DNA of 64,000 nt from a phage. Below the pieces are notes generated by a model, which was not told where the DNA came from, did no database searches, and saw nothing but the letters and a program-made list of their open reading frames with translations. Of this stretch, positions 9,869 to 44,208 are shown one piece after another. The stretch's first letter is position 1; each line of letters opens with the position of its first letter. The stretch is from sequence record PX423614.1; one strand, given 5' to 3'. Position numbers and translations under genes: made by a program.

Positions 9869-9944
9869 GCACCCTTAGCTCAATGGACAGAGCAGCGACC
9901 TTCTAAGTCGTTGGTTACAGGTTCGAATCCTGTAGGGTGCACCA
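9869..9944 (+). tRNA. tRNA-Arg (anticodon UCU)
   Basis: cloverleaf: acceptor GCACCCT/AGGGTGC, D-stem GCTC/GAGC, anticodon stem-loop with TCT at positions 34-36, T-arm ACAGG-TTCGAAT-CCTGT, encoded 3' CCA. Confidence 0.85.
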
Positions 9945-24154: not shown

Positions 24155-25945
24155 ATGTCAAAGATCATTTTGGGAGACACAGGCTGTAAAGAGTGTATCT
24201 CTCATGGTCGTGATAAGACCCGCAATCACATGATTCTCTTCCGAAATGAAGAGTCCGGTGAGGAGTGGGGTTCATGTAACAGATGTGGTGCGTATGAAAT
24301 CTTCGAGAAAGGAATGACGCCCACTCCTAATGAAAAGAAAGAGCTGTCCCCTGAAGAACTCCGAGAAGTCTTAGACGATTGCTTAGAGCTTCCTCAGGGA
24401 GAGTTGACCCGTCGCTTAATTCCTAAAGCTGTATCTGAACGCTATGGATGCCGTATTGGTTTAAGTCAAACAGACGGTCAAACTCCTGACAGCTACTTCT
24501 TCCCTCGCGAACGTGATGGGAATATTGTTGGATATGAAGTAAAACTTCTAGACAGCAAGAAATTCTATTATGTAGGTAATGTGAAAGAAGCCGACTTATT
24601 TGGTATGGCTCAAGCACAACGTGGCGATGTTTACAATAAGAAGCTCTTCATCTTTGAAGACCCACTCTCTTGTATGTCTGGATTCCACGTACTTACTGCG
24701 TTCACAAACGCAACTAATATCAAACCTGCTTGTGTCTCTCTTCCGTTCGGTGCAGGTTCAATCTCTTCTGTGTTGTCAAGAAATCGTGATTTTATTAATG
24801 GTTTCGAGGAGATTGTACTCTGCATGGACAATGATGATGCAGGCGAGATTGCATTGACTAAAGGTCGTTCTCTGTACCCACATGTCAAGTTTGCAAGAAT
24901 TCCAAAAGGTACGTTTACTTACAACGGACAGGAAAAGGAAATCAAAGATGCAAACGACATGTTACTGGCAGGGAGAGGTCAAGAGCTTTTCAATAATCTG
25001 AAGTATTCAGCTAAGCGGGAATCTCCTGCTGGAGCTGTTACAGTTTTTGATTGTCTTGAAGACGCTCTGAAGAAAGCGGAATGGGGTATCCCTTATCCGT
25101 GGAAAACTCTCAATGACATGACCTTTGGTATTCGTTGGGGGGAGATGGTTGCAATCGGCGGTGGTGTTGGTTCAGGTAAAACCTTAATCGCACACGAACT
25201 GGTAGCATGGCTTTGCCTTGAGCATGGTTTTAATGGTGGTGGCTTCTTCTTGGAAGAGAAGGTAGGCATGTCTGTTAAGAACATTGCTGGCAAGTCTGCA
25301 TCTGTTCCATTTCACCGACCGGATGTTGAGTATGAAGAAAGTCAGCTACGAGATGAAGCACTTCGATACGCTGATAAGTTTTTCTTGTACGACAACTTTG
25401 GACAGAATGAGTGGGAAGACATTAAGCAGTGTATTCGCTTTTGGGTAGTTGAGAATCAATGTAAGTTTATCATCCTTGATAACATCACTGCATTGGTATC
25501 TCACTTAACTCCATCCGAAGTGAATACAGAAATCAGTAAGATTGCTTCAGAGCTTGCTGGTATGTGTAAGGAATTAGACTTCACTGCTTTTGTGTTATCT
25601 CACTTGAATGCTCCGGCGGGCGGTGCCCCTCACGAAGAAGGTGGTCAGGTTAAAGAAGTACAGTTTACTGGCTCACGTTCATTAATGCGCTGGTGTCAAT
25701 GTATTATCGGTTTCGAACGTAATAAACAAGCGGATGGGTTAGGTAAAAACTTGTCAATCATACGTCTGCTCAAAGAGCGTAACTATGGACAGACGGGGGT
25801 TTGCTATACCAAATATATTAACGAAACAGGTCGTCTTGTAGAACGAGAAGATCATGAAGTTGATGAAGATAATCCGTTTACAGTCACCAACGGAGAAGAT
25901 GCAGCTTCCTTACTTTCACAAGAAGGGGAGGCACGTCCGTGGTAA
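24155..25945 (+). CDS. bifunctional DNA primase/helicase (T7 gp4-like)
   Basis: N-terminal Cys4 zinc ribbon (CKEC...CNRC), primase-type acidic motif MDNDDAGE, Walker [10 protein letters not shown], Walker B IILDN. Confidence 0.8.
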
Positions 25946-26487
25946 AGAAACTGTATGCGTTTGATATTGAAGGTGATAACCTCTATGACGGTATTCAGAA
26001 TGTCTGGTGTATATGGATATTTGATGTACTGTCTGGAGAACGGTGGGGGTATCGCCCTCACCAAATTGAAGAAGCACTACACAAACTGAAAGAAGCTGAT
26101 GTAGTAATAGGTCACAATATTATTGATTTTGACCTTCCTGCTTTGTTTAAATTCTACTCTCATGTGATACCTTTTCGTTTTAATGTCTTTGATACCCTGT
26201 GCCTGAGTCGATACCTCAAGCCTGACCGTATTGGTGACAGTCCAGAATACCCCAAAGGCGACCCTAGACATGGCCCTCGCGGTCATGGCCTCAAGCAATG
26301 GGGCGAATTTCTGGGAGAGCTGAAGGGTGATTATGGCGAACAGGAAGAAGCATGGGATGCATTCACTGAAGACATGTTCACATATTGTGAGCAAGACGTT
26401 AACTTGACAGTTAAGGTTTACATGTGTCTTTGCCAAATGGCAGGATTTGATTATAGAAATCCCCCATCTCTCAACTGGAAAATGTAG
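25939..26487 (+). CDS. DNA polymerase family A 3'-5' exonuclease domain, encoded as a separate gene
   Basis: Exo I FDIEGD, Exo [10 protein letters not shown], Exo III YCEQDV; aligns with T7 DNA polymerase residues ~1-190; GTG start overlapping helicase stop; TAG stop at 26485. Confidence 0.75.
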
Positions 26488-26489
26488 AA

Positions 26490-27962
26490 ATGATTAAGAT
26501 TCCATTGTCTGAATTGAACCTTCAAGAAGGAGAAGCCCTCAGTGTAGGGCTTGACCTGATTCGTAATTTGATCAGAGATAACGTAGTCCCTGATGGCATC
26601 TATCCTGTTATTGCAGGTGGTGCTATCCGTGATACGTTCTTCCAAAATAGAACTCCGAATGATGTTGATATCTTCCTAGTTCAAGGAGGGTTTCGTTGGA
26701 ACACTCGTCAGGAAAACAGCCCTGCTAACGTAGGTAATGCTGCACTTTTCCTTGACAACTTCTTATCTTGGACAGAAAGTAAGGGGCTTCAGGTTACATC
26801 TCGACTAATTCAGCCTGTTAACGGGACAACCTATGCTGAAGCGCTTTTCACTTTCCAAGAGATTCTGGAAATTGAGATTGATCAAGTTAAAATCCAGATG
26901 ATGATTAATCTACCTTTGGATATGGATACTTTAAGCCGTCGCTTCCCTATGATCTGTCAAGGGTTTATGACTCTTGGTAATCTGTATGTGTCAAACGAAG
27001 GTTTGTTTGCAATGTCATACACTCGTGACATTCCTGTGGTATCTAGTCGTGAAATGAAGTACGTTCACAAGAAGTGGCCTGAAGCAACTGTTGCAGTTTA
27101 TAGCAGTTCTACCGAATATATGCACCTTGCAATGGGAGCTTTCGGTGAGCCAGAAGTTCACCTGATTAGTGATTTAGTTGGACCTATGGCTGGTGTAAAT
27201 TTATATCAGAATCAGCGTCGTCATTATACCCTGAAGATGATGGAAACTATATTAAACATTCCTCAGGAAAGGGGTCGTAGTTATCTGGACGAGGAAGTTA
27301 ACCTACAGACAGAATGGTCTAGTGGATTAACCACTATAGGTGCTGAAGCAATCACGCAGCCTTGGACTCCGGGAACTAACAGACGAGATCTTCAAGCTTT
27401 TAATGAAGAAACTTCTCGAACAGTTCGAGGAGGTGTTGTAGGGTATAACGTACAACCTCATGAAAGACCTCGTGACACTTTCACTGGCAGTTTTGGTAGT
27501 GCACGCTCTTCTGGAGTGGATACTCGTACATGGCATGTCCAAGGAGGAACTGCTCGTCCTATTCCCTCTCCGTCAATGGATGATTTGCAGCGTTCTCGTC
27601 GTTCATGGGAAACAGTAAGCTCTGTTGTTCAGGGTCTACGTGCTAGAGATATTGAACGTGTAGAAGTTGGTGATTTGCCAACCCCTACAGAAGATCGAGT
27701 ATCAGCTATAGCGGCTCGTGAAGCTGCTCATATTGGTTTTGCATCATTAACTAATGACGCTAACGAAGCTCCTCGACCTGTTGGTCGTCGTAATGGTCTA
27801 GCTCACTCTGACACTGCACTTGGTGCAGAACTACGAGCAGCAGCTCGTGAGCTATCTGGTGAGCTTCACAACAACCTAGCAGGTGTTACACTATCTCGTG
27901 AAACAGCTCGTAATATGATTAATAATTTGGCATCATCTGTACAAGGAAACAGAAACTCATGA
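26490..27962 (+). CDS. polymerase-beta superfamily nucleotidyltransferase with disordered Arg/Ser/Thr-rich C-terminal half
   Basis: VIAGGAIRD...NDVDIF matches the GG...DxD head-domain signature of CCA-adding/poly(A) polymerase-type nucleotidyltransferases. Confidence 0.45.
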   Translation: MIKIPLSELNLQEGEALSVGLDLIRNLIRDNVVPDGIYPVIAGGAIRDTFFQNRTPNDVDIFLVQGGFRWNTRQENSPANVGNAALFLDNFLSWTESKGLQVTSRLIQPVNGTTYAEALFTFQEILEIEIDQVKIQMMINLPLDMDTLSRRFPMICQGFMTLGNLYVSNEGLFAMSYTRDIPVVSSREMKYVHKKWPEATVAVYSSSTEYMHLAMGAFGEPEVHLISDLVGPMAGVNLYQNQRRHYTLKMMETILNIPQERGRSYLDEEVNLQTEWSSGLTTIGAEAITQPWTPGTNRRDLQAFNEETSRTVRGGVVGYNVQPHERPRDTFTGSFGSARSSGVDTRTWHVQGGTARPIPSPSMDDLQRSRRSWETVSSVVQGLRARDIERVEVGDLPTPTEDRVSAIAAREAAHIGFASLTNDANEAPRPVGRRNGLAHSDTALGAELRAAARELSGELHNNLAGVTLSRETARNMINNLASSVQGNRNS

Positions 27963-28492
27963 GTCTTTTAGGTTCTCAAGAATTACACAGCGTTATCGAT
28001 AATGGCTTTTTAGATGCGGAGCATAAATATGTTAACGCTGCTAGCGTGGATATCCGTATTGGTGATACTATCCTTGTTGAAGAACAGGCTGATGGTATTG
28101 TTGACATTGATGCTAAAGAAAACCTCAAGTGGAAAGAAGTGAAAATCCCTGAAGATGGCATTGTCATTACTCCGGGACAGTTCTTCTTAGCTCACTCTAT
28201 GGAAGAATTTAACCTTCCAGACAATATTTCAAGTCTGTTTGTACTCCGCTCCTCAATGGCTCGTTGTGGTTTAAACCACTTACATGCTGGGTGGGCTGAT
28301 GCAGGGTTTAACAGCAGTAAGCTAACCTTTGAGTTCCATAACGTTACCCACAATCACAGCTTACGAGTTCGTGCTGGGATGCGTGTTGGTCAAATGGTTA
28401 TGTTTGAACACTCTCACGCTGGTGATGATTCCTATGCAGTGAAGGGTCGTTATAATAACTCTGATGGGGTTGTTGCTTCTAAAGGCGTATAA
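27959..28492 (+). CDS. dcd: dCTP deaminase (Dcd)/dUTPase superfamily protein
   Basis: aligns with E. coli Dcd: ASVDIRIG, ITPGQFFLAHS, RSSMARCGL, AGWADAGF, catalytic-Glu block TFEF, GMRVGQMV. Confidence 0.65.
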   Translation: MSLLGSQELHSVIDNGFLDAEHKYVNAASVDIRIGDTILVEEQADGIVDIDAKENLKWKEVKIPEDGIVITPGQFFLAHSMEEFNLPDNISSLFVLRSSMARCGLNHLHAGWADAGFNSSKLTFEFHNVTHNHSLRVRAGMRVGQMVMFEHSHAGDDSYAVKGRYNNSDGVVASKGV

Positions 28493-28708
28493 TTGATGGA
28501 GTTTGGAACAATGAAAAGACGTTGGGTAGTCCGCGTTCACTGGAGCAGTGGTACAGAATCAATGGGTATCAGAAACACTCGTCAAGAAGCTCGCGCTCAT
28601 AAGAAGTTCTTATTAAGCTGCGAAAGTACTATTGACAAGATCACTATCCACAAAGCTCAGGACTTTAAATCAGGTCGTTTCTATATCAGCGGAAAGGTAC
28701 ATTACTAA
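28493..28708 (+). CDS. small protein, KVHY-tail family copy 1
   Basis: W.VRV.W...TRQEAR...I.IHK...KVHY pattern shared by four ORFs. Confidence 0.5.
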   Translation: MMEFGTMKRRWVVRVHWSSGTESMGIRNTRQEARAHKKFLLSCESTIDKITIHKAQDFKSGRFYISGKVHY

Positions 28709-28914
28709 TGGCTAAATTATGGGCAGTTCGTGTTAAATGGGCTAACAAAGATCTTGGTGGTGATTGTCTTAAACTGTTTGACACACGACAAGAAGCTCGT
28801 CTTGCTAAGAAAGCTACAAAAGCTTTAGGTCTCGCTGAAAAAGTAGAGATTCATCGTTGGTTTCAAAATGATAATAACAGTGCAGGATCCTTGACTAGCA
28901 AGGTTCATTACTAG
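28708..28914 (+). CDS. small protein, KVHY-tail family copy 2
   Basis: LWAVRVKW...TRQEARLAKKA...SKVHY. Confidence 0.5.
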   Translation: MAKLWAVRVKWANKDLGGDCLKLFDTRQEARLAKKATKALGLAEKVEIHRWFQNDNNSAGSLTSKVHY

Positions 28915-28966
28915 TTGGTAGTAGATATGATAACTCTCAAATGTATATACAGTATAAGAATATTGT

Positions 28967-29314
28967 ATGAAACAGGAGAGAGTTATGTTAGATTTGAGTA
29001 AAGTGGCCCCGCCATCTGAAGAGATTAGCAAAGCTAAAGTTATGCAGCAGTTCTATCATCGTGATATGCTTGGTCGTTATATCAAGAATCGTGATGTTGT
29101 TGCATGGTCTATTGGAAATCAAGGTTATCTTCTCAAAGTGTTGCAAGTTACTGGCTCAACAGCCAAGCGAGTCAAAGTCTATGACCCTGAAATGGGGCGT
29201 TCTAAATCAGTAGACCCTCAGAATTGCATTGTTATCACACAACAGGTCATGGATAACATTGCTCGTAATGTAGCTAATTCAACTAACTTAGAAGGGGATG
29301 CACCTAATGCATAA
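28967..29314 (+). CDS. hypothetical protein
   Basis: ORF track; AAATGTATATA motif about 25 bp upstream. Confidence 0.45.
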   Translation: MKQERVMLDLSKVAPPSEEISKAKVMQQFYHRDMLGRYIKNRDVVAWSIGNQGYLLKVLQVTGSTAKRVKVYDPEMGRSKSVDPQNCIVITQQVMDNIARNVANSTNLEGDAPNA

Positions 29315-29873
29315 TAATGTCTTCGACTTACCTGAACTAACACGAGTGGGTTCTAGCAACCCATTCTCTACTACTGACTCTTCTATCTCTCGTCTTGAGG
29401 GAATGAATAAACTGATTAGCGGTAACAGCTTAGAACACATCTTGTGTGGTGTGCAAGCTAACCTTGAACTTCTACACATCAAAGCAAAGAACTACCACTG
29501 GAACGTCTCTGGAGCTGGTTTCCAAGGTGTTCATGGTATGTTCGATGAGTTAGAAGATTATGCTCGTGAGGCAGGCGACCGAATAGCAGAGCGTATGCGC
29601 TTTCACTGTGTTAAAGTGGATGCTACTGCTAGTAACTATTTAGGTCATGCTTGGTTCCGAGAAGGTAACGCTGATCTCGACATGGACGGTATGCTTTCCG
29701 ACATGTGCATGACTCTGATGTGTATCATTGAAAAGATGGACGAGTTTGATTCAGACTTGTGCACTTATCCAGTTGACCAGAGTATGCTTCAAGAAATTAA
29801 TGAAGGTCTTGGCAAGTTCTGCTACTTCGTCAAGAGCAACATGTCCCACTCCAGTGGTGACGTGTCTTACTAA
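29298..29873 (+). CDS. Dps-like ferritin-superfamily protein
   Basis: HWNVSGAGFQGVHGMFDELEDYAREAGDRIAER matches the Dps signature H-W-N-V-x-G...H...F.E...E; alternative internal start at 29403 possible. Confidence 0.55.
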   Translation: MHLMHNNVFDLPELTRVGSSNPFSTTDSSISRLEGMNKLISGNSLEHILCGVQANLELLHIKAKNYHWNVSGAGFQGVHGMFDELEDYAREAGDRIAERMRFHCVKVDATASNYLGHAWFREGNADLDMDGMLSDMCMTLMCIIEKMDEFDSDLCTYPVDQSMLQEINEGLGKFCYFVKSNMSHSSGDVSY

Positions 29874-29930
29874 TCAAACCTCCGCCCTGTCTCTTTGTTT
29901 AAGAGGTGGGGCGAACTTCTTTATAAGGAT

Positions 29931-30116
29931 ATGAGTATGTTTTCAGCAATCGTATGGTCTGTATGGGCAATTCTTGTTGGTGGTATCGTTTATCTGGCTC
30001 AGAAGCAGATGCTTAAAGAGAATCCGAATGATGCTAAACCTATTAAACATGGCAGCATTGCTCTGGTAATTTTCTCTGTTGTTATTCCTTTCCTTCTCCA
30101 CCTGTTGACTGCATAA
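29931..30116 (+). CDS. small membrane protein (two helices), tandem paralog 1
   Basis: AAGGA RBS; hydrophobic helices; paralog of the following interrupted gene. Confidence 0.5.
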   Translation: MSMFSAIVWSVWAILVGGIVYLAQKQMLKENPNDAKPIKHGSIALVIFSVVIPFLLHLLTA

Positions 30117-30125
30117 GGGTTTGAT

Positions 30126-30315
30126 ATGATTTCACTGATTGTGTGGGCCGTGTGGTCGTTAATAGTTGGTACTGTTATATATATATAAAGCTCGAAATTT
30201 AGCAATTAAAGAAAACCCAGCAGAAGAGGATGTTAAAGCTATCAAGCTAGGTAGTGTTGTTCTGGTACATTTTGCTATAACACTACCTCTTGTTATTATT
30301 CTTTGTATGCTATAA
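30126..30315 (+). pseudogene. frameshifted tandem paralog of 29931-30116 (interrupted at an (AT)5 tract)
   Basis: frame 0 stops after 20 codons within ATATATATATA (30177-30187); a +1 shift restores a C-terminal half similar to the upstream paralog. Confidence 0.4.
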
Positions 30316-30505
30316 GGAATCCAAAGAGTGAAACTAAACCTACCTGAAGAATTACAAGCACATGCCATTATCGTTAGTGGCTGTGTGATGGGTCTTGGTC
30401 AGACAAAGAAGATTGCTCATGACTTAGCAAAAGGTCAGTATAAATCTTTTATTGTTGTTCCTGCTACCCAGCGTCATATCAACCTGTTTATTAACAAGGA
30501 ATAGA

Positions 30506-30781
30506 ATGAGTAAAGTAATTAAGTTTTATAGTAATTCATGTGCTCCGTGTGCAGCTATGGCTCCTGTGTTTAAGAAGGTTGTGGCTGACTATAGTGTAGA
30601 AGTTGAAGAAGTAAATATCTCTGAAGGTGATGGTCGAGAGCGAGCCGTTGAATATGGTGTTCGCAGTATCCCAGCCTTTGTCGTCCCTGATAAGAACAGT
30701 GGTGCTCATTATAGTTTATCAGGTATGCAAACTGAATCTAATCTCCGTGCATTTTTAGACACGGCTCTGAAAGGTATTTAA
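30506..30781 (+). CDS. thioredoxin/glutaredoxin-like protein (CxxC active site)
   Basis: KFYSNSCAPCAAMAP CxxC motif in thioredoxin-fold position; downstream IPAFVV cis-Pro-like motif. Confidence 0.5.
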   Translation: MSKVIKFYSNSCAPCAAMAPVFKKVVADYSVEVEEVNISEGDGRERAVEYGVRSIPAFVVPDKNSGAHYSLSGMQTESNLRAFLDTALKGI

Positions 30782-30782
30782 T

Positions 30783-30998
30783 ATGGAAAAGAAACCTTGG
30801 ATTACTTTTTGGGTAGTTAAGTGGTTTAATTTTGATAGCACAATCCCTAGCCTCTCCTCGTACACAACACGGAGAGAGGCTCGCCGCTTTAAGCGAGCTT
30901 TAAAAATTGCTAACACTGGTGCTTCTAAGATCACAATCCAGAAAGGGATTGAAACAGAAAGTGGAAGCAATCTGATTTATAAAAAGATTTACTATTAA
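30783..30998 (+). CDS. small protein, KVHY-tail family copy 3
   Basis: WVVKW...TRREARRFKRALK...ITIQK...KKIYY. Confidence 0.5.
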   Translation: MEKKPWITFWVVKWFNFDSTIPSLSSYTTRREARRFKRALKIANTGASKITIQKGIETESGSNLIYKKIYY

Positions 30999-31013
30999 AG
31001 AATAGGTGCTATT

Positions 31014-31226
31014 ATGACTCAAGGAAAAGATGTGTATTTTTGGGCTGTTGTTTCTGAATATCCAGAGATGGAGTATCCAAGGGTTAACACGTGTGCTACT
31101 CGTAAAACTGCACGATGCACTAAACGTGCCCTCAAGAAGATGGGTCGTGATTCGAAGATTTCAATCCACCGTGCATATATGACAGCAGCGGGTTTCATTG
31201 TAGTAACACCAAAAGTTTATTATTAA
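31014..31226 (+). CDS. small protein, KVHY-tail family copy 4
   Basis: FWAVV...TRKTARCTKRALK...ISIHR...PKVYY. Confidence 0.5.
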   Translation: MTQGKDVYFWAVVSEYPEMEYPRVNTCATRKTARCTKRALKKMGRDSKISIHRAYMTAAGFIVVTPKVYY

Positions 31227-31240
31227 GGAAGAGTTCAAGG

Positions 31241-31891
31241 ATGAATGAACAATTACAAGCAACACTAATTGAAGCAATGGGAAATGACAAAACCGTTGTT
31301 AACGCAGCTCGGGTTTCTTTTGGAGTCACTCGTGAAGGAGAGTTAAATGAACGTGATGAACGCCTTATCAAATTCCTTGCCAGAGAAAAACACTGTACAC
31401 CATTCCGTCATCCGACAATTAGCTTCCGATGCAAAGCGCCAATCGCAATTGCGAGGCAGCTGGGCAAGCATCAAGTTGGATTCTCGTGGAACGAAATGTC
31501 CCGGCGGTATAAAGATGGAGCAGTTGAACTCTTCATCCCTAAAGAGATTTTTGAAAGACCTTCGGACCTCCATGCAGGTGCGGGGAATCTCCTCACCACA
31601 GGAGCACAAAACTCTGCACTAGTCCTGATTAATCGGGCATATGAAACAGCTCTTGAGTCATATGATGAGTTGATTAAGTTCATCGCTCCAGAGCAAGCTC
31701 GATTCGTACTACCTCAGGGAATGATCACTGAGTGGGTGTGGACAGGCTCTTTATATGGTTGGTCAGAGTTGTGTCGTCAGCGACTGTCCGACCATGCTCA
31801 GTATGAAGTACGAGTGTTCGCATCAACGGTCGATGAAGAGCTTCGTAAACTTTTCCCAATCTCATGGGACGCACTACGTGAAGCCCACTAA
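31241..31891 (+). CDS. thyX: ThyX-like flavin-dependent thymidylate synthase homolog with divergent RHR motif
   Basis: KHQVGFSWNEMSRRY resembles the ThyX signature RHR-x-x-S-xxxx-S-x-RY but RHR is replaced by KHQ. Confidence 0.5.
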   Translation: MNEQLQATLIEAMGNDKTVVNAARVSFGVTREGELNERDERLIKFLAREKHCTPFRHPTISFRCKAPIAIARQLGKHQVGFSWNEMSRRYKDGAVELFIPKEIFERPSDLHAGAGNLLTTGAQNSALVLINRAYETALESYDELIKFIAPEQARFVLPQGMITEWVWTGSLYGWSELCRQRLSDHAQYEVRVFASTVDEELRKLFPISWDALREAH

Positions 31892-32063
31892 AGTGTGTAG
31901 CTTCTGTCAAAAGCAGAAGCTTCTTATCAATTTCAAGCTGAACGAGGAAACAGGTTTGGGTCATGCTTTTTGTCATGATTGCAGGTACTACCTTGAACAG
32001 AAGCAACACATAAACTGGTTGCATTACTACAAACCTAACACCTACAAGCACAAGGTTATCTAA

Positions 32064-32543
32064 ATGAAAGCTATTTTTGAAGGAAGAGAATATGATGTTC
32101 CTGAGTGGACCAAATACATAGCCCGCGATTGTGATAATCAGGTTTGGGCATATGGAAATACACGACCTATGTTTAATGAAAACACTGGCAGTTGGTCTAA
32201 TATGTCAAAACTACCGGGATATATTCGGTTGCTTGGTTCTTCTAGGCGTCCTGTAGGTTTCGCTGCTGACTCTCTTGTTGAGGTCGGTGTTGAAAAAGGG
32301 GTAGACAAGCCAGAAACAATTTGGGTATTGTCTTCGAGTACTCCAATCAAAGGGAGTCGTGGGATTTCCTTCTACGTTGAGCCTGTCGCTTACTTCAAAA
32401 AGAAGCCAACCACCAACTCTCTGATGTTAAAGAACATTCCTTATTCCCAAGTTGCTACTCTGTTAGATAATGGAACAGTGCTTGTTGAGAATAATGGGAC
32501 AAATCAAATCTTTTATGATTTAGAAGAAAGGGTTTTGGAATGA
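32064..32543 (+). CDS. hypothetical protein
   Basis: ORF track. Confidence 0.5.
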   Translation: MKAIFEGREYDVPEWTKYIARDCDNQVWAYGNTRPMFNENTGSWSNMSKLPGYIRLLGSSRRPVGFAADSLVEVGVEKGVDKPETIWVLSSSTPIKGSRGISFYVEPVAYFKKKPTTNSLMLKNIPYSQVATLLDNGTVLVENNGTNQIFYDLEERVLE

Positions 32544-32860
32544 TCAACAATAATACATTTAGGACTGGTAACGGAAATGAAATCAGTCCTGCTGAAGTGA
32601 TTAAACGACACAGAACACAGATGCTTATCCACTCCTATTTGTATTATTGGTTGGATGACCCAATCTGGTCTGACGATAAGTGGCAACAAGTGGCTGATGA
32701 CTTAACCACCTTGCAAGAGATGTATCCTGAGCCTATTGGATTCTTCGATTCAGAGTTCAATGGATGGAATGGCTCCACTGGTATGCATCTTCCTCATGAC
32801 GAGCGTATAGCTTGTATGGCTACTGAAGTATACCGTTTACATAAGGACAAATCAATCTGA
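32540..32860 (+). CDS. hypothetical protein
   Basis: ORF track; overlapping start/stop. Confidence 0.5.
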   Translation: MINNNTFRTGNGNEISPAEVIKRHRTQMLIHSYLYYWLDDPIWSDDKWQQVADDLTTLQEMYPEPIGFFDSEFNGWNGSTGMHLPHDERIACMATEVYRLHKDKSI

Positions 32861-33038
32861 AATGTTTTAAATGTGAATCAACTCTTCTCCATTTGGACTC
32901 GAAAGTAATACGGGAGCTTGCCAAAGGCTCCCCGACTAAAGGGAAGAATAAGAAGTTTGTCGAAATTAAGGTTATAGGTATCCATTGCTCAGAGTGTAAA
33001 TCCTGTAGCTTCTTATATGAAGAACACGGAGGTAGGAA

Positions 33039-33776
33039 ATGAGTCGTAGAGAATCTCGGAAAGCATCACGGAGAGAATTACGTCGTGAAGCTCTCGTCAC
33101 CAAGAAAGGAAAGCGGGAATTTGAAGAAGTAGTTCTTGCTAAGCCGGTAGTACCTCAGAACCAATTCCAGAGTGAGCTGCTTGATGCAATTAAAACCAAA
33201 CAGGTTGTATTCACAGATGCTCCTGCTGGTTGTGGTAAGACCTTCGTAATTACTTCTACAGTAATTGATGCTCTGAAGAGTGGGAAGATTGAGAAGATTA
33301 TCCTAAGCCGGCCTGCTGTTGGTATGGGTAATAGTCTTGGATTACTTCCCGGTGGGCTTCGTGAGAAGTTTGAACCATACCTAATGCCAATCGTTGATGT
33401 TATTACTCAGCGCTACGGTAAAGGTTTCTACGAATGTCAAGTAGGTAATGGTAATATTGAGTTCGTACCTCTGGAATATCTACGTGGTCGCTCGTTCAAC
33501 GATGCTGTCGTGATTGTTGATGAGTTCCAGAACACTACTCCTGATGAAGCATATTCAATCATGACACGTCTTGGTGAAACCTCTCAGATGTTCTGCATGG
33601 GGGACACTAACCAGCACGACATGCGTGGTGAGAGCGGTCTTGATTGGGCTACTGATTTCATCTACCGTCACCAGTTATTTGAGTTTGCCGCTCTAGTAGA
33701 TGGCGAATCAGATGATATTGTTCGTTCAGGTTTCTGTAAAGCTATTGTTAAAGCAATGGAATCTGAAAAATCATAA
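33039..33776 (+). CDS. phoH: PhoH-like ATPase
   Basis: Walker A DAPAGCGKTF, Walker B VIVDEFQN and overall PhoH-family pattern. Confidence 0.7.
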   Translation: MSRRESRKASRRELRREALVTKKGKREFEEVVLAKPVVPQNQFQSELLDAIKTKQVVFTDAPAGCGKTFVITSTVIDALKSGKIEKIILSRPAVGMGNSLGLLPGGLREKFEPYLMPIVDVITQRYGKGFYECQVGNGNIEFVPLEYLRGRSFNDAVVIVDEFQNTTPDEAYSIMTRLGETSQMFCMGDTNQHDMRGESGLDWATDFIYRHQLFEFAALVDGESDDIVRSGFCKAIVKAMESEKS

Positions 33777-33823
33777 ACATAATGTATACTCCTTAGTGTA
33801 CACTGATATGTTAAGGAGTTGTG

Positions 33824-34138
33824 ATGACCGATAAGGCGAAACGTGATTATGCACAAGAACGAAGAACTGCAATCGCAAGGGGTGAGACCGGCGTTGGTAG
33901 CAAGAGCGGAGATGCTCAGCGCCACCGTGCACGTCGCATCGTTGAAAAGCGCGATGGAAAAGCTGCTGTCCGAGGTAAAGATGTTGGACACAAACGATCA
34001 ATCAAGTCGGGAGGTTCTAATGCGTCAAGTAACTTACGTGTTGAATCAGTCTCTCGAAATCGCTCGAACGGCGGCAAAAGTGGAGATCGTGCTGGAAAAT
34101 CAGCAGGCGGTCGCAAAGGAGCTTTAAGCTCAAGTTGA
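33824..34138 (+). CDS. highly basic Arg/Lys/Gly-rich protein
   Basis: AAGGAG RBS 9 nt before ATG; TAATGTATA motif 36 bp upstream; an alternative overlapping frame (33843-34127) also stays open. Confidence 0.45.
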   Translation: MTDKAKRDYAQERRTAIARGETGVGSKSGDAQRHRARRIVEKRDGKAAVRGKDVGHKRSIKSGGSNASSNLRVESVSRNRSNGGKSGDRAGKSAGGRKGALSSS

Positions 34139-34143
34139 TATAA

Positions 34144-34174
34144 GGCTACCCATTTCGGGTGGCCTTTTCTTTTA
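34144..34174 (+). terminator. rho-independent terminator
   Basis: GGCTACCC-atttc-GGGTGGCC followed by TTTTCTTTT. Confidence 0.6.
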
Positions 34175-34194
34175 TAGAACCTAAGGTAATAAAT

Positions 34195-34446
34195 ATGTCT
34201 AAAGTAACTTATATCACTGTAACTGATTTCCTCCCTTCTCTGAACACAACTGAGAGCTATACTTTTCCTGTAGAAAATGTTACAAGCTCTGTTGAAATGA
34301 TTAAGTTTAATCAAACAACAGCTCGTACTAACGTGGCTCTTCGTGGTCCTGATGGCAAGTTCATCTCCTTCCGTGATAAGGTTGTTCCTAAGCGTATTGC
34401 TAAATCTATTGAAAATCTGAAACCTTTCCCTAACTTTGGTGCATAA
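34195..34446 (+). CDS. small protein, tandem paralog 1 (TARTNV...GKF...NLKPFP)
   Basis: shares TARTNVALRGPDGKFISFRD and NLKPFP with the next gene. Confidence 0.5.
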   Translation: MSKVTYITVTDFLPSLNTTESYTFPVENVTSSVEMIKFNQTTARTNVALRGPDGKFISFRDKVVPKRIAKSIENLKPFPNFGA

Positions 34447-34447
34447 T

Positions 34448-34705
34448 ATGAAGATTAGCTTAATCCAAATTCGTGATCATCTCTTTAATGGTGACGCTCA
34501 GACTCATGACTACAAGGTTAATCAAGGACAACACCCTACCAATCACCTGATTGGAGGGATTTCTTTATTACCTAATAAAACAGCACGGACTAATGTAATG
34601 ATTCGTGGTAAGGATGGTAAATTCCTCTCTTATCGTGACCCTGAAATCTGTGCTATTGTTCGTACAGCCATGAACAACCTAAAACCATTCCCGACAGTGG
34701 AGTAA
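34448..34705 (+). CDS. small protein, tandem paralog 2
   Basis: TARTNVMIRGKDGKFLSYRD...NLKPFP. Confidence 0.5.
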   Translation: MKISLIQIRDHLFNGDAQTHDYKVNQGQHPTNHLIGGISLLPNKTARTNVMIRGKDGKFLSYRDPEICAIVRTAMNNLKPFPTVE

Positions 34706-34708
34706 GTT

Positions 34709-35062
34709 ATGCCAGTACCTCAACGCCTAGAACGTCACTGCGTTCTCAAATGGGATAATATTCATGATAACCTCTCTATTCAAGAGTTTCGTCAGTTTAT
34801 CGAATTGACAGCGAAGATTAACCGAAACCAACCAGCTCGAAACTTTGTGGTGGTTAGCGATAAGTATCCAGAGCTGTATGAGCAGGTGTGGGGGATGAAA
34901 CTAGCACAGGTTCAGAGGAATAGTAATGAACGGAGAGAAGCTCGTAGACAGCGAGCAGAAGATGTTCCAGCAGTCTTTTATGTGGATGAATTGGCTGATT
35001 CATATGAAGCTTTAGATATTGTTGAAGACAACCAAGCATTCACAGATTTAATATACCAATAA
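34709..35062 (+). CDS. hypothetical protein
   Basis: ORF track. Confidence 0.5.
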   Translation: MPVPQRLERHCVLKWDNIHDNLSIQEFRQFIELTAKINRNQPARNFVVVSDKYPELYEQVWGMKLAQVQRNSNERREARRQRAEDVPAVFYVDELADSYEALDIVEDNQAFTDLIYQ

Positions 35063-35075
35063 CTATAAGGAGTGG

Positions 35076-36770
35076 GTGATGGATAACCCTGATAAGTTAC
35101 CTTTCATAACGGAGATGACAGTCGCTGATATAATCTCAAAACAGGCGAAGCATGGAGTCAACTTCAACAGAAGAAACGCTCGGTGGTTTGTTCACCTTCT
35201 CAAAGAGATTATTGTCAATATTGATAAAGAACTGATTCCTCTCCTCCCCAAAATGCGGGTGGATGGTTCAACTTATTCCAAACCTTTTAAGAAGTCCGGT
35301 GCTTTACAGAAGTGGCCTCAACTCTATTGTGATAGGGTTGGTCTTAAAAGAGAAGATATCGGTGGGGCGTTTACTTGCGTTGAGTATGTAGACTTTGACC
35401 CATCAAAAGATGCACGTATCAAAGAAGCCTTGATGGATGAAGGTTTTATACCTCCAGAGTGGAATTATTCTAAGAAACCTTGGAATACTTTTGAAATTCG
35501 TAAAGCTATGAAGAAGTATGGTACATACTCTGCATGGTATTCTGCTTGGATTCGAGGTAACGCTAAAGAGAAACAGACAGCAGAGATGATAGATGCTGAT
35601 ATCCGAAGGTTTTTGGATAAACACTTCCGTTATCATACTGTCAATTATATGAAAGCCTATGTCAGCGGTTTAGGTCTTAACCCTAACAGGAAGAAGCCTG
35701 TAACCTTTGATGAAATCAAAAAAGTTTTGGCTACATCAAACAAGTGGCCTACAGCCCCTACAAACCTTGAGGAGACTCTTGAAGAGGGGCTTGGGGGTGA
35801 GCTAGGGGGTGTAGGAAGTTTGCTTAAGAGACGCGTTGTAGCGGCTCACAGGCTAGGTTTGATTAGCGGGCTTATCGACAAGGAACGTAAAGATGGTAAG
35901 TTGTCCGCCGAAGCTAATAGCTGCGCTACTCCGACATTTCGTTTTAAACATCGCATTGTTGTTAATATTCCTTCTCGCGGTTTGTTTGGTCACGAGTGCC
36001 GCAGTCTTTTTCAATCTGACTATTCCTCAGACGATAGTCATAACCATCCTTTCATCATTACCAACCATATCCCTGATGGGTGTTACGTACGAAAGGGTAC
36101 TAACATTATCTATGAAATGGGAAAACCGGGCAAGAAAGACAAACCAATAGGTGCTTATAAATTTTATGTACCTGCTGGTCGTGAAGTCTTCTTAGGTTAT
36201 GATGGCTCTGGTCTTGAGCTGAGGATGCTCGCTCACTACCTTATCAAAGAGTGTCGTGAGATGCTCGCTGAAGCAGAGCGGGAAAACAACCCAGCTAAGA
36301 AACGGGAAGCTGAACGCGGTCTAGCTTCTGCTGTTATGTACAGAGATATTCTTTTAGAAGGAGATATTCACTCACATAACCAAAAACTTGCTGGCCTTCC
36401 TACTCGTGATAATGCTAAAACATTTATCTACGCATTCAACTACGGAGCTGGTGACGCTAAGTTAGGAAGCATCGTAGGTGGTGGCTCTGACGAAGGGGCT
36501 ATCATGAGAGCAAGATTCTTAGCAGAGAATCCTTGTATTGCAATCCTTATTGAACGTATGACAGAGAAAGCACAAAGTGGATATATCTACGGTGTGGATG
36601 GACGTCGTATTACAATGAGAAGAGATGCAACTGGAAAGGTTATGGTCCATAAAGCCTTAAATACGCTCCTACAGAGCGCTGGGGCGATTGTTATGAAGTA
36701 TGCAATGCTATTCCTCAATAAATGGATTGAGCGTGATGGTGTTCGTTGTGCGAAGGTTATCGACATGCAT
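35076..36770 (+). CDS. DNA polymerase family A polymerase domain, exon 1 (thumb, palm, fingers through motif-C His)
   Basis: aligns with T7 DNA polymerase and Klenow: motif A DGSGLELR, motif B RDNAKTFIYAFNYGAG, KALNTLLQSAGA; exon ends at the motif-C His codon CAT at 36768-36770. Confidence 0.8.
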
Positions 36771-37378
36771 AAACTTTCATTGTGCATGTAAAAGTTGGTG
36801 AACTCGGTGAAACCCTACCATTAAGTTGGGGGCAATACCGAGCTAAGCTATTAGGAGATGATATGGCTAAGAAAACTCTTGTTTTGGAAACAACCGAAAC
36901 AGGGTGTATCATCCCTATCTCACACAAACTTAACAAAGATGGTTATTTCAGAAAAGTAATAGATGGCAAATGGGTCATGTATCATAGATATGTTTGGGAA
37001 GAATCTTTTGGTTCTATTCCTGATGGTTATGAAATAAATCACAAATGCAAGAATAGGGCTTGTTCCAATCTTGAGCACTTAGAAATGATTGAAGGTTCAG
37101 AACATGCAATAGAATCAAACACTGGAAGAAATGGAGATAGACAAGAAGCTGCAAGGCTTTATTGGCTAGAAACAGAATGCTCTGGTGTACATCTTGCAGA
37201 GAAGTTTGGTGTGAGCTTCGGAATCGGTTGTAGATGGATTCGGAAGTGGAAAGTGTAGAGACTATCCTAAGGGAGTAGGGGGTTAACAGGGAAACCCTCG
37301 AAGCGCCAACAACAGCAAATTAGCTATGCTGTTATGATATAGTCCGATACCCGAAGTAATTTGGGAATAACATAAATG
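36771..37378 (+). mobile_element. group I intron interrupting the polymerase gene at motif C
   Basis: 5' exon ends in U that can pair with intron GUGCAU to form P1 with a U-G wobble; intron ends in G; R-like AGACTA and S-like GATATAGTCC core elements; exon 2 resumes with DEGQFTVHRDDV matching Klenow DELVFEVHKDDV. Confidence 0.65.
36864..37258 (+). CDS. intron-encoded HNH homing endonuclease
   Basis: GYEINHKCKNRACSNLEHLE HNH motif; TAGGAG RBS; located inside the intron. Confidence 0.65.
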
Positions 37379-37531
37379 GATGAAGGCCAGTTCACTGTAC
37401 ATCGTGATGATGTTAATATTCTGCGCACTCTCACTGAAGAGTGTGTCCGTAAAGCAGGGGAATACCTCAAGATGGAATGTCCTCTTGCATCAGATTGTAA
37501 GATTGGGCTTAACTGGAATCATACTCACTAA
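37379..37531 (+). CDS. DNA polymerase family A, exon 2 (C-terminal 50 aa)
   Basis: DEGQFTVHRDDVNIL...GLNWNHTH aligns with the polymerase C-terminus (T7 ...GPNWAICH). Confidence 0.65.
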   Translation, partial: DEGQFTVHRDDVNILRTLTEECVRKAGEYLKMECPLASDCKIGLNWNHTH

Positions 37532-37842
37532 TGATTGATATCAAAACTGAAGTTAAATATAATCCCAAGCTCAATTTTGATGCTTGGGCAAAACTGATTC
37601 TTGATATACCTCTCCAAGATGTGGGTTACACACAAGTAACCTGCACAGCAGAAATTCCTACTCATGGGTTACGTCCGTGGAAAGGCGTATCAGTTGTAGA
37701 TGTGATAAAAGAGATGGTTAAAAGATGTGCCACTCAGTACGGAGGTGCATTAGAAGGTCGTCATTTCTACTACACCCGTAAGCAGGAGTCAACACAATAC
37801 GAAACTTTCATTGAAGTTAACCTCTTTGTGGTGGAGAAGTAG
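37531..37842 (+). CDS. hypothetical protein
   Basis: ORF track; start overlaps polymerase stop. Confidence 0.45.
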   Translation: MIDIKTEVKYNPKLNFDAWAKLILDIPLQDVGYTQVTCTAEIPTHGLRPWKGVSVVDVIKEMVKRCATQYGGALEGRHFYYTRKQESTQYETFIEVNLFVVEK

Positions 37843-37882
37843 TGACTAGTTCAGTGGAAGAGTTGAATGGTATTACGAAATG

Positions 37883-37909
37883 AACTAGTCTTATTGATTA
37901 GTTCTTTTT
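37883..37909 (+). terminator. rho-independent terminator
   Basis: GAACTA...TAGTTC followed by TTTTT. Confidence 0.5.
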
Positions 37910-38224
37910 AAGGAGACAAGGAAGTGGAAGAAGTAAAAAGTTCTGAATGGTGCTTGAAGCAACAAAAGCTCGCACAGGATGAAGGTCGTTTTGAAGACGC
38001 TAAAGCTTATGGTGAATTATTTCAAACATGGGTAGAACGAGAGGAGAAAGCTAAATGATGGACCTGATTCGTAAACCCGCCCCAAAGTGGAACATCTATT
38101 ACCAAGATTCCACTGGTAAATTTCATAACCAACTGGTTTATACTGATGAAGAGCGCGATGAAGTCGTTGCTCAGATTGAAGCAGATGGTGGTACAGTTCT
38201 CAAAATCTACGAAAGGAATTAATA

Positions 38225-42147: not shown

Positions 42148-42798
42148 ATGAAGAAGAAGACAACACCCACACGCTATCGTATTCATGGCATTCCTATTAA
42201 ATATTATCCAACCTTCGATGAATTTTATCGAGAGAACTGGAAAGTTGTGCATAAGTATTTTATGTATGACATTAAAGATTATCACGAGGCAGAGGATGTT
42301 GCTCAGGAAGTGTTACTGAACGCTTGGCGTTTTGTATTTGCAAAGCAAGAAGAACTTCTGCTCACTGATGAAAAAGATATTGAGCACATGACTTATCGTG
42401 TCAAGAATATCATCTGGTCGATTCGTTCTAATCGTCAGACAGTTGGAGACCGACGTATCTACTCTATTCCAGAAGCTGATATGTTTAGACCTCCTGAGAT
42501 GAATTCATGGGAAAGTCCTTTAGAGATTGCGATGGATAAGCATGATTCTACTGGAGACCCGTTCTTGGAATCTAGAATCTTTTTCTTCTTCCAAGACCTG
42601 AGTGACATTATGGAAAACCGTAAGATGGCAAGCATGTTCTCAATGCTCTTTCTCGGCATCCCACATGATCACATCCAGCAAGAGTTGGGAATTTCACACG
42701 GAACCTTCTATCGTCGTTATTCAGAGAATCGTGATCTGTATGAAGCGGTAGTAGAGAAGCACTTTGATAAAGAAGATCTTCAAGGGATGATTCAATAA
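42148..42798 (+). CDS. phage-encoded ECF-like sigma factor
   Basis: region-2-like [15 protein letters not shown] and C-terminal region-4-like helix-turn-helix [20 protein letters not shown]. Confidence 0.55.
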
Positions 42799-43394
42799 TG
42801 AGTAAACCATTAGTAGTAATTCTGAATGGACCACCGGGTTGTGGTAAAGATACAATCGCTAATTCTTGGTTAGAGAAAACACTTGGTAACACCGAGTTTA
42901 GGCCGCATGTAAAGGCTTTTAAGGAGCCTATGTATCGAGTGGCTGCTGCTGCATTAGGTCTACCTCTTTATGAGTTCATGGAGCTGTACAACGACCGTGA
43001 GTGGAAAGAACATAGCCGTCCTGAATGGGACGGTAAGTCAGTTCGAGACTTGATGATTGCAACTAGTGAGAACTATCTGAAGCCCATGTTTGGTGAGACC
43101 TGCATGGGTAAACTTGCTGTTAGCAGTATTCAACAACGCACCCCAACACAGAATGATGTTATTGTATTCTCTGACGGTGGGTTTAAAGCAGAAGTTGAAG
43201 AACTGGAAAAACATTTCCATGTTCGAGTAGTTCAGATTCTCCGAGATGGATGCTCCTTTGAAGGGGACTCCCGTTCTTATATCGAAGGAATAAACCTACC
43301 AACCTACCTCCTCTTTAATGACCGTTCTGTAGAAGAGGCAGTGGAGGATTTGGAGTGGATTATTGAGGGGACACGGAGAGGTCTCTATGTCTGA
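42798..43394 (+). CDS. P-loop nucleotide kinase (dNMP kinase-like)
   Basis: Walker A LNGPPGCGKDT at N-terminus; size and pattern like phage dNMP kinases. Confidence 0.45.
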   Translation: MSKPLVVILNGPPGCGKDTIANSWLEKTLGNTEFRPHVKAFKEPMYRVAAAALGLPLYEFMELYNDREWKEHSRPEWDGKSVRDLMIATSENYLKPMFGETCMGKLAVSSIQQRTPTQNDVIVFSDGGFKAEVEELEKHFHVRVVQILRDGCSFEGDSRSYIEGINLPTYLLFNDRSVEEAVEDLEWIIEGTRRGLYV

Positions 43395-44208
43395 TGTAGT
43401 CTATCCTGAAGTAGCAATTGTGGATGCAGATGTTCTACGGTATGAAGTTGGTGCTCTTACACAAGAGCATCCATTCCTAGATACAGGTCGTGTTCCGGTT
43501 GATTATGGATTCTTAATTGAACGTCTCCAACACAAAATTGATGTAATCATTGCAAGGTCAGGTTGTGAGAAAATAATCTTTTACTTCAGTGAAGGTGGTA
43601 ATTTTCGGTTTGATATTGCTAAGCAGCAAGGTTATAAAGCTAATCGACCACCGGGAGAAAGACCTCACCACTGGCAAAATGTTAGTGACTACATTAAAGA
43701 GAATTACGAATACGTAGAAGTTTTTGGGAGAGAGGCAGATGATGCCTTAGCTGAAAGACAGAGACGTGATAAGAACACTATCATTTGCACCCGTGATAAA
43801 GACTTGTTAATCACTCCCGGATGGCATTACCGTTGGGCTTGCGGGGAGAGACAGAAAGAGGTACCTCCTCATTATGTATCAGAGGAAGTAGCATGGCAGA
43901 ACTTCTTCTACCAGATGCTGATCGGGGATAGCACAGATAATATTCCCGGATGTGGTGAGAAGGTTGAAATGATGTGGGGTGGCAATCTAGTAATGCGTCG
44001 TAAAGGCATTGGTAGTAAGGCTGCAATCAAACTTATTGAGAAGGTATTCGATAAGTGGACTCTTTATCATATTATACGAATGGAATACTATAAAAGGTTC
44101 GAGGAAGAAGCAGAAGATAAGATGTTAGAAAACGCTCGATTGCTCTTCGTTGGACAAGCTGAAGGTGACCTCTTTGATTGGTCATGGTTAGATAAAACTT
44201 GGGAATAA
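43387..44208 (+). CDS. 5'-3' exonuclease (FEN family, T7 gp6-like)
   Basis: GYKANR, EADD, TRDKDL and GDSTDNIPG motifs align with T7 gene 6 exonuclease; track ORF begins at 43363. Confidence 0.65.
   Translation: MSDVVYPEVAIVDADVLRYEVGALTQEHPFLDTGRVPVDYGFLIERLQHKIDVIIARSGCEKIIFYFSEGGNFRFDIAKQQGYKANRPPGERPHHWQNVSDYIKENYEYVEVFGREADDALAERQRRDKNTIICTRDKDLLITPGWHYRWACGERQKEVPPHYVSEEVAWQNFFYQMLIGDSTDNIPGCGEKVEMMWGGNLVMRRKGIGSKAAIKLIEKVFDKWTLYHIIRMEYYKRFEEEAEDKMLENARLLFVGQAEGDLFDWSWLDKTWE

Follow-up and report, generated by a model that had tools for sequence, protein, structure and literature searches.

The family A DNA polymerase of phage T7, gene product 5 (gp5), is one polypeptide of 704 amino acids. 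An arrangement with the exonuclease and the polymerase on two polypeptides is already known from phiEco32-like and LUZ24-like phages, and descriptions of it date back to 2008. Separate exonuclease and polymerase genes are ascribed to the phiEco32 group in PMC3517423 (2012, citing the phiEco32 paper of 2008) and were also described in PMC9965538 (2023); PMC3890496 lists 'DNA polymerase part I/II'. The name 'DNA polymerase exonuclease subunit' is given in RefSeq to ECBP2_0072 and Bas87_0070 and is used by PHROGs as well. Here, we analysed a stretch of phage DNA of 64,000 nucleotides (sequence record PX423614.1; hereafter, the window), in which a stand-alone 3'-5' exonuclease gene (exo) and a polymerase gene (pol) are located 8.6 kb apart. 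As judged from its sequence, the source of the window is a phiEco32-like coliphage of the Gordonclarkvirinae, similar to members of Suseptimavirus. The original prediction made for this stretch implied that the exo/pol separation was novel. That implication does not stand in view of PMC3517423, PMC9965538, and the annotation vocabularies and, being documented, the split carries little weight as a discovery. Its value is that of a reminder: literature searches revealed no published biochemistry on complex formation, proofreading, or the role of thioredoxin in split family A polymerases.

The exo open reading frame (ORF) begins with GTG and ends with a TAG stop at 26485-26487. Its product of 182 amino acids is the counterpart of T7 gp5 residues 1 to ~200. 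It matched the Pfam family PF01612 (3'-5' exonuclease) with a score above the curated cut-off, as well as PHROG 38876 (E=3e-67) and PHROG 403 (E=3e-37), both named as exonuclease subunits of DNA polymerase. Motifs Exo I (D9-I-E11), Exo II (N60...D65), and Exo III (Y149...D153) are present. None of the catalytic residues D9, E11, D65, Y149, and D153 is substituted in 24 homologues with identities down to 35%; their conservation at this divergence indicates purifying selection for activity. In a sequence search of the PDB, residues 4-142 of T7 gp5 were the sole matches. The top 27 PDB matches obtained with Foldseek for the AlphaFold model of exo (predicted local distance difference test, pLDDT, 92) were all T7 polymerase (E=1e-10, TMq ~0.7), about five orders of magnitude ahead of any other nuclease.

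The second half of the enzyme is encoded by pol. The ORF opens at GTG 35076, while ATG 35079 is preceded by an AAGGAG ribosome-binding site and corresponds to the annotated start in relatives; the latter is the more likely start codon. In the alignment to T7 gp5, the N-terminus of the product falls at about residue 205, and the exonuclease domain is absent. Polymerase motifs A (DGSGLELR, with D375), B (RDNAKTFIYAFNYG), and C (MHDE, with D565) are invariant in 45 homologues. Motif C is complete solely after removal of a predicted group I intron. The AlphaFold model of pol has a pLDDT of 90, and its top 27 Foldseek matches were T7 polymerase (E=2e-26).

When the 182- and 614-amino-acid products are concatenated, they align along the whole of T7 gp5. 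The break is located at the exo/pol interdomain linker: the end of exo corresponds to about residue 200 of T7 gp5 and the beginning of pol to about residue 205, with nothing missing and nothing duplicated. Thus, exo and pol are the separately encoded halves of a T7 gp5-type family A polymerase. The original prediction had recognized all three 3'-5' exonuclease motifs and the TAG stop in the 182-amino-acid product and had placed the exonuclease domain in a gene separate from that of the polymerase. Both statements were borne out by the ORFs, the profile matches, the invariant residues, and the alignment to T7 gp5. Its account of the enzyme as two genes is correct for the exo/pol separation but incomplete: the intron at 36771-37378 was overlooked, and the enzyme is encoded in three pieces, since this intron interrupts pol. 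The polymerase start given there, 35076, is where the ORF opens, with ATG 35079 being the likelier initiation codon.

Two segments of pol, residues 147-168 and 389-416 (window positions ~35517-35582 and ~36243-36326), occur in coliphage-type polymerases and are absent from the LUZ24-like enzymes. These inserts are candidate lineage-specific docking or processivity elements.

A T7 gp4-type primase/helicase is encoded immediately upstream of exo. The stop codon of the primase/helicase gene overlaps the exo start (GTGGTAA), and a GGGGAGG ribosome-binding site precedes the latter. The overlap together with this site suggests that exo is translationally coupled to the primase/helicase. The C-terminal tail of the primase/helicase (window positions 25856-25945) contains 8 acidic residues and 1 basic residue among its last 30, as compared to 9 and 1 in T7 gp4, and terminates with Trp. 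In T7, the acidic, Phe-terminated tail of gp4 docks onto gp5. The two tails resemble each other, the terminal residue being aromatic in both.

It is probable that the locus encodes a gp5-type enzyme split at the linker, which operates as a non-covalent holoenzyme with proofreading in trans and whose motif C intron is spliced out. The 182-amino-acid exo subunit and pol would assemble non-covalently into a T7-like holoenzyme, in which exo would proofread the products of its partner in trans. A mobile, HNH-encoding group I intron between the His and Asp codons of motif C would be removed from the mRNA to yield an active polymerase of 614 amino acids. Of the ways in which the two polypeptides may operate, we infer a non-covalent two-subunit polymerase with trans proofreading to be the likeliest. 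Several points weigh against this reading. Literature searches turned up no biochemical work on the exonuclease subunit of a split phage Pol A. Terminator-like hairpins at 29883-29913 and 34142-34166 lie between the two genes, so that exo and pol probably belong to different transcription units and an equal stoichiometry of the subunits is not assured. Finally, the match of the intron to the Rfam model RF00028 is below the gathering score (26.7 versus 50 bits), and none was obtained in the gathering-score scan of the whole window; this low score is probably due to a 396-nucleotide (nt) ORF that splits the model.

The exo product could alternatively be an independent nuclease, acting for instance in recombination, in the degradation of host DNA, or in the processing of primers and flaps, that does not associate with pol, which would then replicate DNA without proofreading. 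The distance of 8.6 kb with terminator-like hairpins in between, the coupling of exo to the primase/helicase rather than to pol, and the lack of any report on exo-pol interaction in literature searches agree with this possibility. We nevertheless consider it unlikely. The nearest relatives of exo outside its clade are the exonuclease domains of fused, T7-like replicative polymerases, and the fold similarity to T7 gp5 exceeds that to other nucleases by the margin stated above. In both lineages inspected, and according to the literature also in related phages, exo accompanies a T7-type polymerase that has no exonuclease domain. Moreover, exo sits behind the primase/helicase gene, where the T7 gene order places the start of gene 5.

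A further possibility, which we regard as quite improbable, is that exo serves as a dissociable proofreading factor, supplied in step with the primase/helicase through translational coupling, and not as a constitutive partner of pol. If true, replisome assembly or the stage of infection would determine replication fidelity or exonucleolytic idling, and the proofreading of this family A polymerase would be tunable. The docking or processivity elements could in that case be the pol inserts (residues 147-168 and 389-416) or the phage thioredoxin.

Besides being separate from exo, pol is itself interrupted. Read without splicing, the pol frame reaches a stop at 36791 and resumes at 37379-37531 in a 51-codon ORF beginning with '(M)DEGQ...'. 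Excision of 36771-37378 restores an ORF of 1845 nt; the alleles of UKE3 and Bas87, which have no interruption, are just as long. The spliced product shares 99% amino acid identity with these alleles, and the junction, CAT|GAT for His|Asp of motif C, is identical. Pol function would require splicing, since unspliced RNA would give a polymerase without the motif C aspartate. Within the excised segment, the HNH ORF starts at ATG 36863, which is preceded by an AGGAG ribosome-binding site; the open frame reaches upstream to GTG 36782. The corresponding ORF is annotated as HNH or homing endonuclease in the records of relatives.

The RF00028 match (E=1.8e-4) spans the conserved GAUAUAGUC core and P9. 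Helices P1, P10, P3, P4, P7, P8, and P9 were identified. In P1, the last 8 nt of exon 1, ACAUGCAU, pair with the internal guide GUGCAUGU (8 base pairs, with a terminal U.G at the splice site). In P10, the adjacent guide bases UUCAUU pair with GAUGAA, the 6 nt with which exon 2 opens (6 base pairs). The last base of exon 1 is U, and the last base of the intron, at 37378, is G. Pairing in P3, P8, and P9 is preserved by compensatory changes across four lineages, whereas P4 and P7 show practically no variation, the exception being a single G-C to G-U change in P4 of Vp_R1. Covariation was judged lineage by lineage; a MAFFT alignment of the ORF-deleted introns misaligned P8 and P7.2 between lineages.

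The intron shares 65-68% nucleotide identity with gene-5 introns of the T7-like phages 13a, JeanTinguely, K1F, Sekstaphage-1, VSG32, YenP_WX2, and AhaP_PT2, of which those of 13a, JeanTinguely, and K1F are annotated as joined coding sequences (CDS). The more distant Vp_R1 intron is similarly related to it. Ten homologous introns with mapped boundaries (K1F was left out) all follow the His codon of 'HDE', are ~600 nt long, and contain an HNH ORF of 131-139 amino acids. The introns of PhiI and W31, located at the motif C site (position 881 of E. coli Pol I), self-splice, as reported by Bonocora and Shub (2004), cited in PMC3428280. On the basis of its helices and homology, the segment 36771-37378 is identified as a group I intron of the PhiI/W31 type, subgroup IA2. 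It adds a new member to an intron family that is already well characterised, at the site known for that family. Its presence in just 11 Gordonclarkvirinae records is as expected for a mobile element.

The same segment could be read as a free-standing HNH gene that leaves the polymerase in three separate chains, the catalytic Asp being carried by a peptide of 50 amino acids. The 51-codon ORF does possess an ATG of its own at 37376, the Rfam score is under the threshold, and relatives are annotated with two 'DNA polymerase' CDS and an HNH CDS. This explanation is very improbable given the guide pairing of P1 and P10 exactly at both junctions, the presence of the conserved GAUAUAGUC core and P7, the covariation in P3, P8, and P9, and the homologous T7-like gene-5 introns that are annotated as spliced or, in PhiI and W31, reported to self-splice (cited in PMC3428280). 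A free-standing HNH gene cutting pol into peptides was dropped from consideration after the mapping of P1 and P10 and the covariation analysis.

The Suseptimavirus records ECBP2, SU7, and PE006 show two 'DNA polymerase' CDS and an HNH gene, with no joined CDS. Literature searches revealed no paper on the intron in Suseptimavirus genomes. Suseptimavirus annotations of this kind should be converted to one joined CDS.

Many of the close pol homologues (77-87% identity; P0050-P0053, P0114, and others) end at ~450 amino acids, inside motif B. There are two or three slightly different truncation points (...RDNAKTF / ...TFI / ...FIYAFN), which point to a second interruption hotspot in other members of the group. 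Mobile insertions have thus targeted the pol gene repeatedly.

The coordinates of all features are given in Table 1.

Table 1. Location of the split polymerase genes, the intron, and other features in the 64,000-nt window.
Feature	Position	Strand	Basis
T7 gp4-type primase/helicase	24155..25945	+	Pfam DnaB_C and Toprim_2
Stand-alone 3'-5' proofreading exonuclease subunit (exo), 182 amino acids	25939..26487	+	PF01612, PHROG 38876/403, PDB, AlphaFold/Foldseek
Intervening block, ~22 co-oriented genes	26490..35062	+	ORF list, Pfam, PHROG, annotation of ECBP2, SU7, UKE3, Bas87
Nucleotidyltransferase	26490-27962	+	Pfam/PHROG
dCTP deaminase	27959-28492	+	Pfam/PHROG
Terminator-like hairpin	29883-29913		Between exo and pol
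Thioredoxin	30506-30781	+	PF00085
ThyX	31241-31891	+	Pfam/PHROG
Ligase-like	32540-32860	+	Pfam/PHROG
PhoH	33039-33776	+	Pfam/PHROG
Strong terminator-like hairpin	34142..34166	+	10-base-pair stem then TTCTTTTATA; SU7 terminator feature L002:11563-11607
Polymerase (pol) exon 1, 564 codons: thumb, fingers, palm to His of motif C	35079..36770	+	PF00476, T7 gp5 alignment, intron-free alleles
Predicted group I intron, 608 nt	36771..37378	+	Rfam RF00028 sub-threshold, precise excision, helices, homology
Intron-encoded HNH homing endonuclease, 131 amino acids	36863..37258	+	PF13392 HNH_3, E=3e-12
Polymerase (pol) exon 2, 50 codons + stop, first residues catalytic Asp-Glu of motif C	37379..37531	+	Aligns with T7 gp5 residues 654-704
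Separately encoded 5'-3' exonuclease, T7 gene 6 counterpart	43363..44208	+	PHROG 107 exonuclease, E=8e-63

The gap between exo and pol comprises ~22 co-oriented ORFs, and 21 genes are annotated at this place in ECBP2. This count agrees with the original prediction, which reported more than 20 co-oriented genes between the halves and concluded that the gap is neither an intron nor an intein. The latter conclusion also holds: there is no RNA-family signal at either edge, and surplus residues are absent from the junction. Permissive Rfam scans of the 3' edge of exo and the 5' edge of pol detected nothing relevant. A split intein was considered and rejected, as intein N- and C-fragments are not found at the break and the exo-pol concatenate fits T7 gp5 without surplus residues. 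Although a genuine group I intron elsewhere in pol would put splicing machinery at hand, joining of the halves by trans-splicing, a split intein, or ribosomal bypass has practically no probability, given the ~22 genes between them, the ribosome-binding site, start, and stop possessed by each gene, and the absence of intron-like signals or additional residues for intein halves where exo ends and pol begins.

Conservation of the segment was assessed by a megablast search of positions 25500-38000 against 50,697 phage records. Matches were found in 99 phage records, 18 of which covered at least 80% of the 12.5-kb query colinearly with 91-96% identity. All were phiEco32-like coliphages of the C3 morphotype (Gordonclarkvirinae), mostly belonging to Suseptimavirus (ECBP2, UKE3, IME267, SU7, EK010, and Bas86-88). 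The gene order primase/helicase, exo, insert, pol, and 5'-3' exonuclease is common to ~100 coliphage records. Pseudomonas phage NV1, a member of another genus, displays the same order of exo and pol with an insert of just 2 kb. In NV1, the gamma-glutamyl cyclotransferase gene comes first, followed by the primase/helicase gene with exo overlapping it, then by seven small genes that span 2 kb, and lastly by pol and the 5'-3' exonuclease gene. Comparison of gene order in related phages, proposed in the original prediction, therefore revealed that the exo/pol separation is retained, and the rearrangement or assembly artefact offered there as an option is excluded. The unusual layout alone speaks for an artefact or for a recent rearrangement limited to one genome, an explanation with a negligible chance of being correct in the face of these 18 independent colinear records and the partial matches among the 99, the equal gene order in NV1, and the many metagenomic contigs, reaching 112 kb in length, that encode stand-alone exo proteins.

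The simplest history of the locus would be an old fission at the linker followed by accumulation of genes between the halves. Homologues of exo with identities down to 47% are all stand-alone proteins of 163-193 amino acids, encoded on contigs of up to 112 kb. Overall, stand-alone homologues of the exo family range from 163 to 208 amino acids, and their partner polymerases have no exonuclease domain. The close homologues of pol also all lack this domain, out to the LUZ24-like 'DNA polymerase part II' at ~40% identity. The distant relatives of exo are mostly N-terminal domains of fused polymerases: among the best 150 cluster representatives, 81 have the length of a fused protein and 44 that of a stand-alone one. 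In the Vibrio phages N4 and ICP3 (39-40% identity), the exonuclease domain is located inside the annotated DNA polymerase gene. A T7 gp5-like gene may thus have been split long ago at the linker between the exo and pol domains. The exo half would have stayed in the ancestral position behind the primase/helicase gene (gene 4; compare the T7 gene order), and nucleotide-metabolism genes and small genes would have accumulated between the halves, so that pol is now 8.6 kb downstream.

Several small genes of the intervening block resemble each other. Four ORFs of ~70 amino acids, at 28493-28914 and 30783-31226, look paralogous; they share the core '...TRQEAR..KK...I.IH...' and end with KVHY, KIYY, or KVYY. 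The presence of paralogous small ORFs inside the block is consistent with local duplication. Two adjacent ORFs of 95 and 89 amino acids at 34159-34705 both contain 'TARTNV.(L/I)RG.DGKF(I/L)S(F/Y)RD...NLKPFP' and represent a tandem duplication, located just upstream of pol and just after the hairpin at 34142-34166. A free-standing HNH gene is present immediately upstream of thyX in SU7 (L002:7794-8285) and Bas87 (L004:7409-7876), but not at the equivalent place in the window (31226-31241) or in UKE3. This distribution points to a second variable homing-endonuclease site within the block.

The thioredoxin gene of the block is of interest with regard to T7 gp5, in which residues 262-338 form the thioredoxin-binding loop. 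In the alignment of the window polymerase to T7 gp5, this loop is not conserved: the equivalent segment is ~29 amino acids shorter, poorly similar and, according to the monomer model, ordered. A link to thioredoxin as a processivity factor was raised as speculation in the original prediction; the hypothesis of thioredoxin acting in processivity in C3 podophages has already been put forward in PMC7881722.

Downstream of the replication block, genes for an extracytoplasmic function (ECF)-type sigma factor (42148-42798) and a deoxynucleoside monophosphate kinase (42798-43394) are followed by that for the 5'-3' exonuclease, which is described in PMC9965538 as the other nuclease encoded apart from the polymerase in this group of phages. 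Near 45 kb, where the large minus-strand genes begin, both the orientation of the genes and the GC skew are reversed. A tRNA gene at 9869-9941 (73 bits) was the sole RNA family above the Rfam gathering score in the window.

The separation of polymerase and proofreading activities has a counterpart in bacteria. In the bacterial Pol III core, the alpha subunit acts together with a separate proofreading subunit, epsilon (DnaQ). Here, likewise, the polymerase and a 3'-5' exonuclease of the DnaQ fold are separate polypeptides. The polymerases, however, are unrelated, belonging to family A in the window and to family C in Pol III, and exo is of the Pol A/T7 lineage rather than that of epsilon.

For exo as well as for pol, T7 gp5 is the best match in sequence and in fold. 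Exo I-III and polymerase motifs A-C are present in both systems, and both possess a gp4-like primase/helicase with an acidic C-terminal tail. The window enzyme differs from T7 gp5 in having additional insertions in the thumb and around motif A. While T7 gp5 pairs with the thioredoxin of E. coli, thioredoxin is phage-encoded here and its processivity role is putative.

The intron is most similar to those of the PhiI/W31 type, including the introns of 13a, K1F, and JeanTinguely. The insertion point after the His codon of 'HDE', the size of ~600 nt, the conserved core, and the 131-amino-acid HNH ORF with a ribosome-binding site in equal position are shared. The window intron differs from the T7-like gene-5 introns in its host gene, which belongs to another phage subfamily and encodes a polymerase without exonuclease domain. 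In addition, its P1 and P10 are fitted to the flanking exon sequence, its P5 is extended by 9 nt, and its P7.2 region is shorter.

The LUZ24-like and related Pseudomonas phages (LUZ24, PaP3, tf, UFV-P2, and NV1) share with the window a separate exo behind the primase/helicase gene and, downstream, an exo-less polymerase (~40% identical), as well as flanking genes for amidoligase, gamma-glutamyl cyclotransferase, and 5'-3' exonuclease. The gap between exo and pol is ~2 kb in these phages versus 8.6 kb here, and their polymerases lack the coliphage residues 147-168 and 389-416. The pol gene of LUZ24 also contains a group I intron, whose splicing has been confirmed.

The closest similarity is that to the phiEco32/Kuravirus-like coliphages (ECBP2, SU7, SU10, YF01, and Bas86-88), in which architecture and gene order are identical and nucleotide identity across the segment is 93-96%. 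These phages display no essential difference from the window, with the motif C intron occurring in just ~11 of the 99 records; SU7 and Bas87 possess the HNH gene beside thyX, which the window does not.

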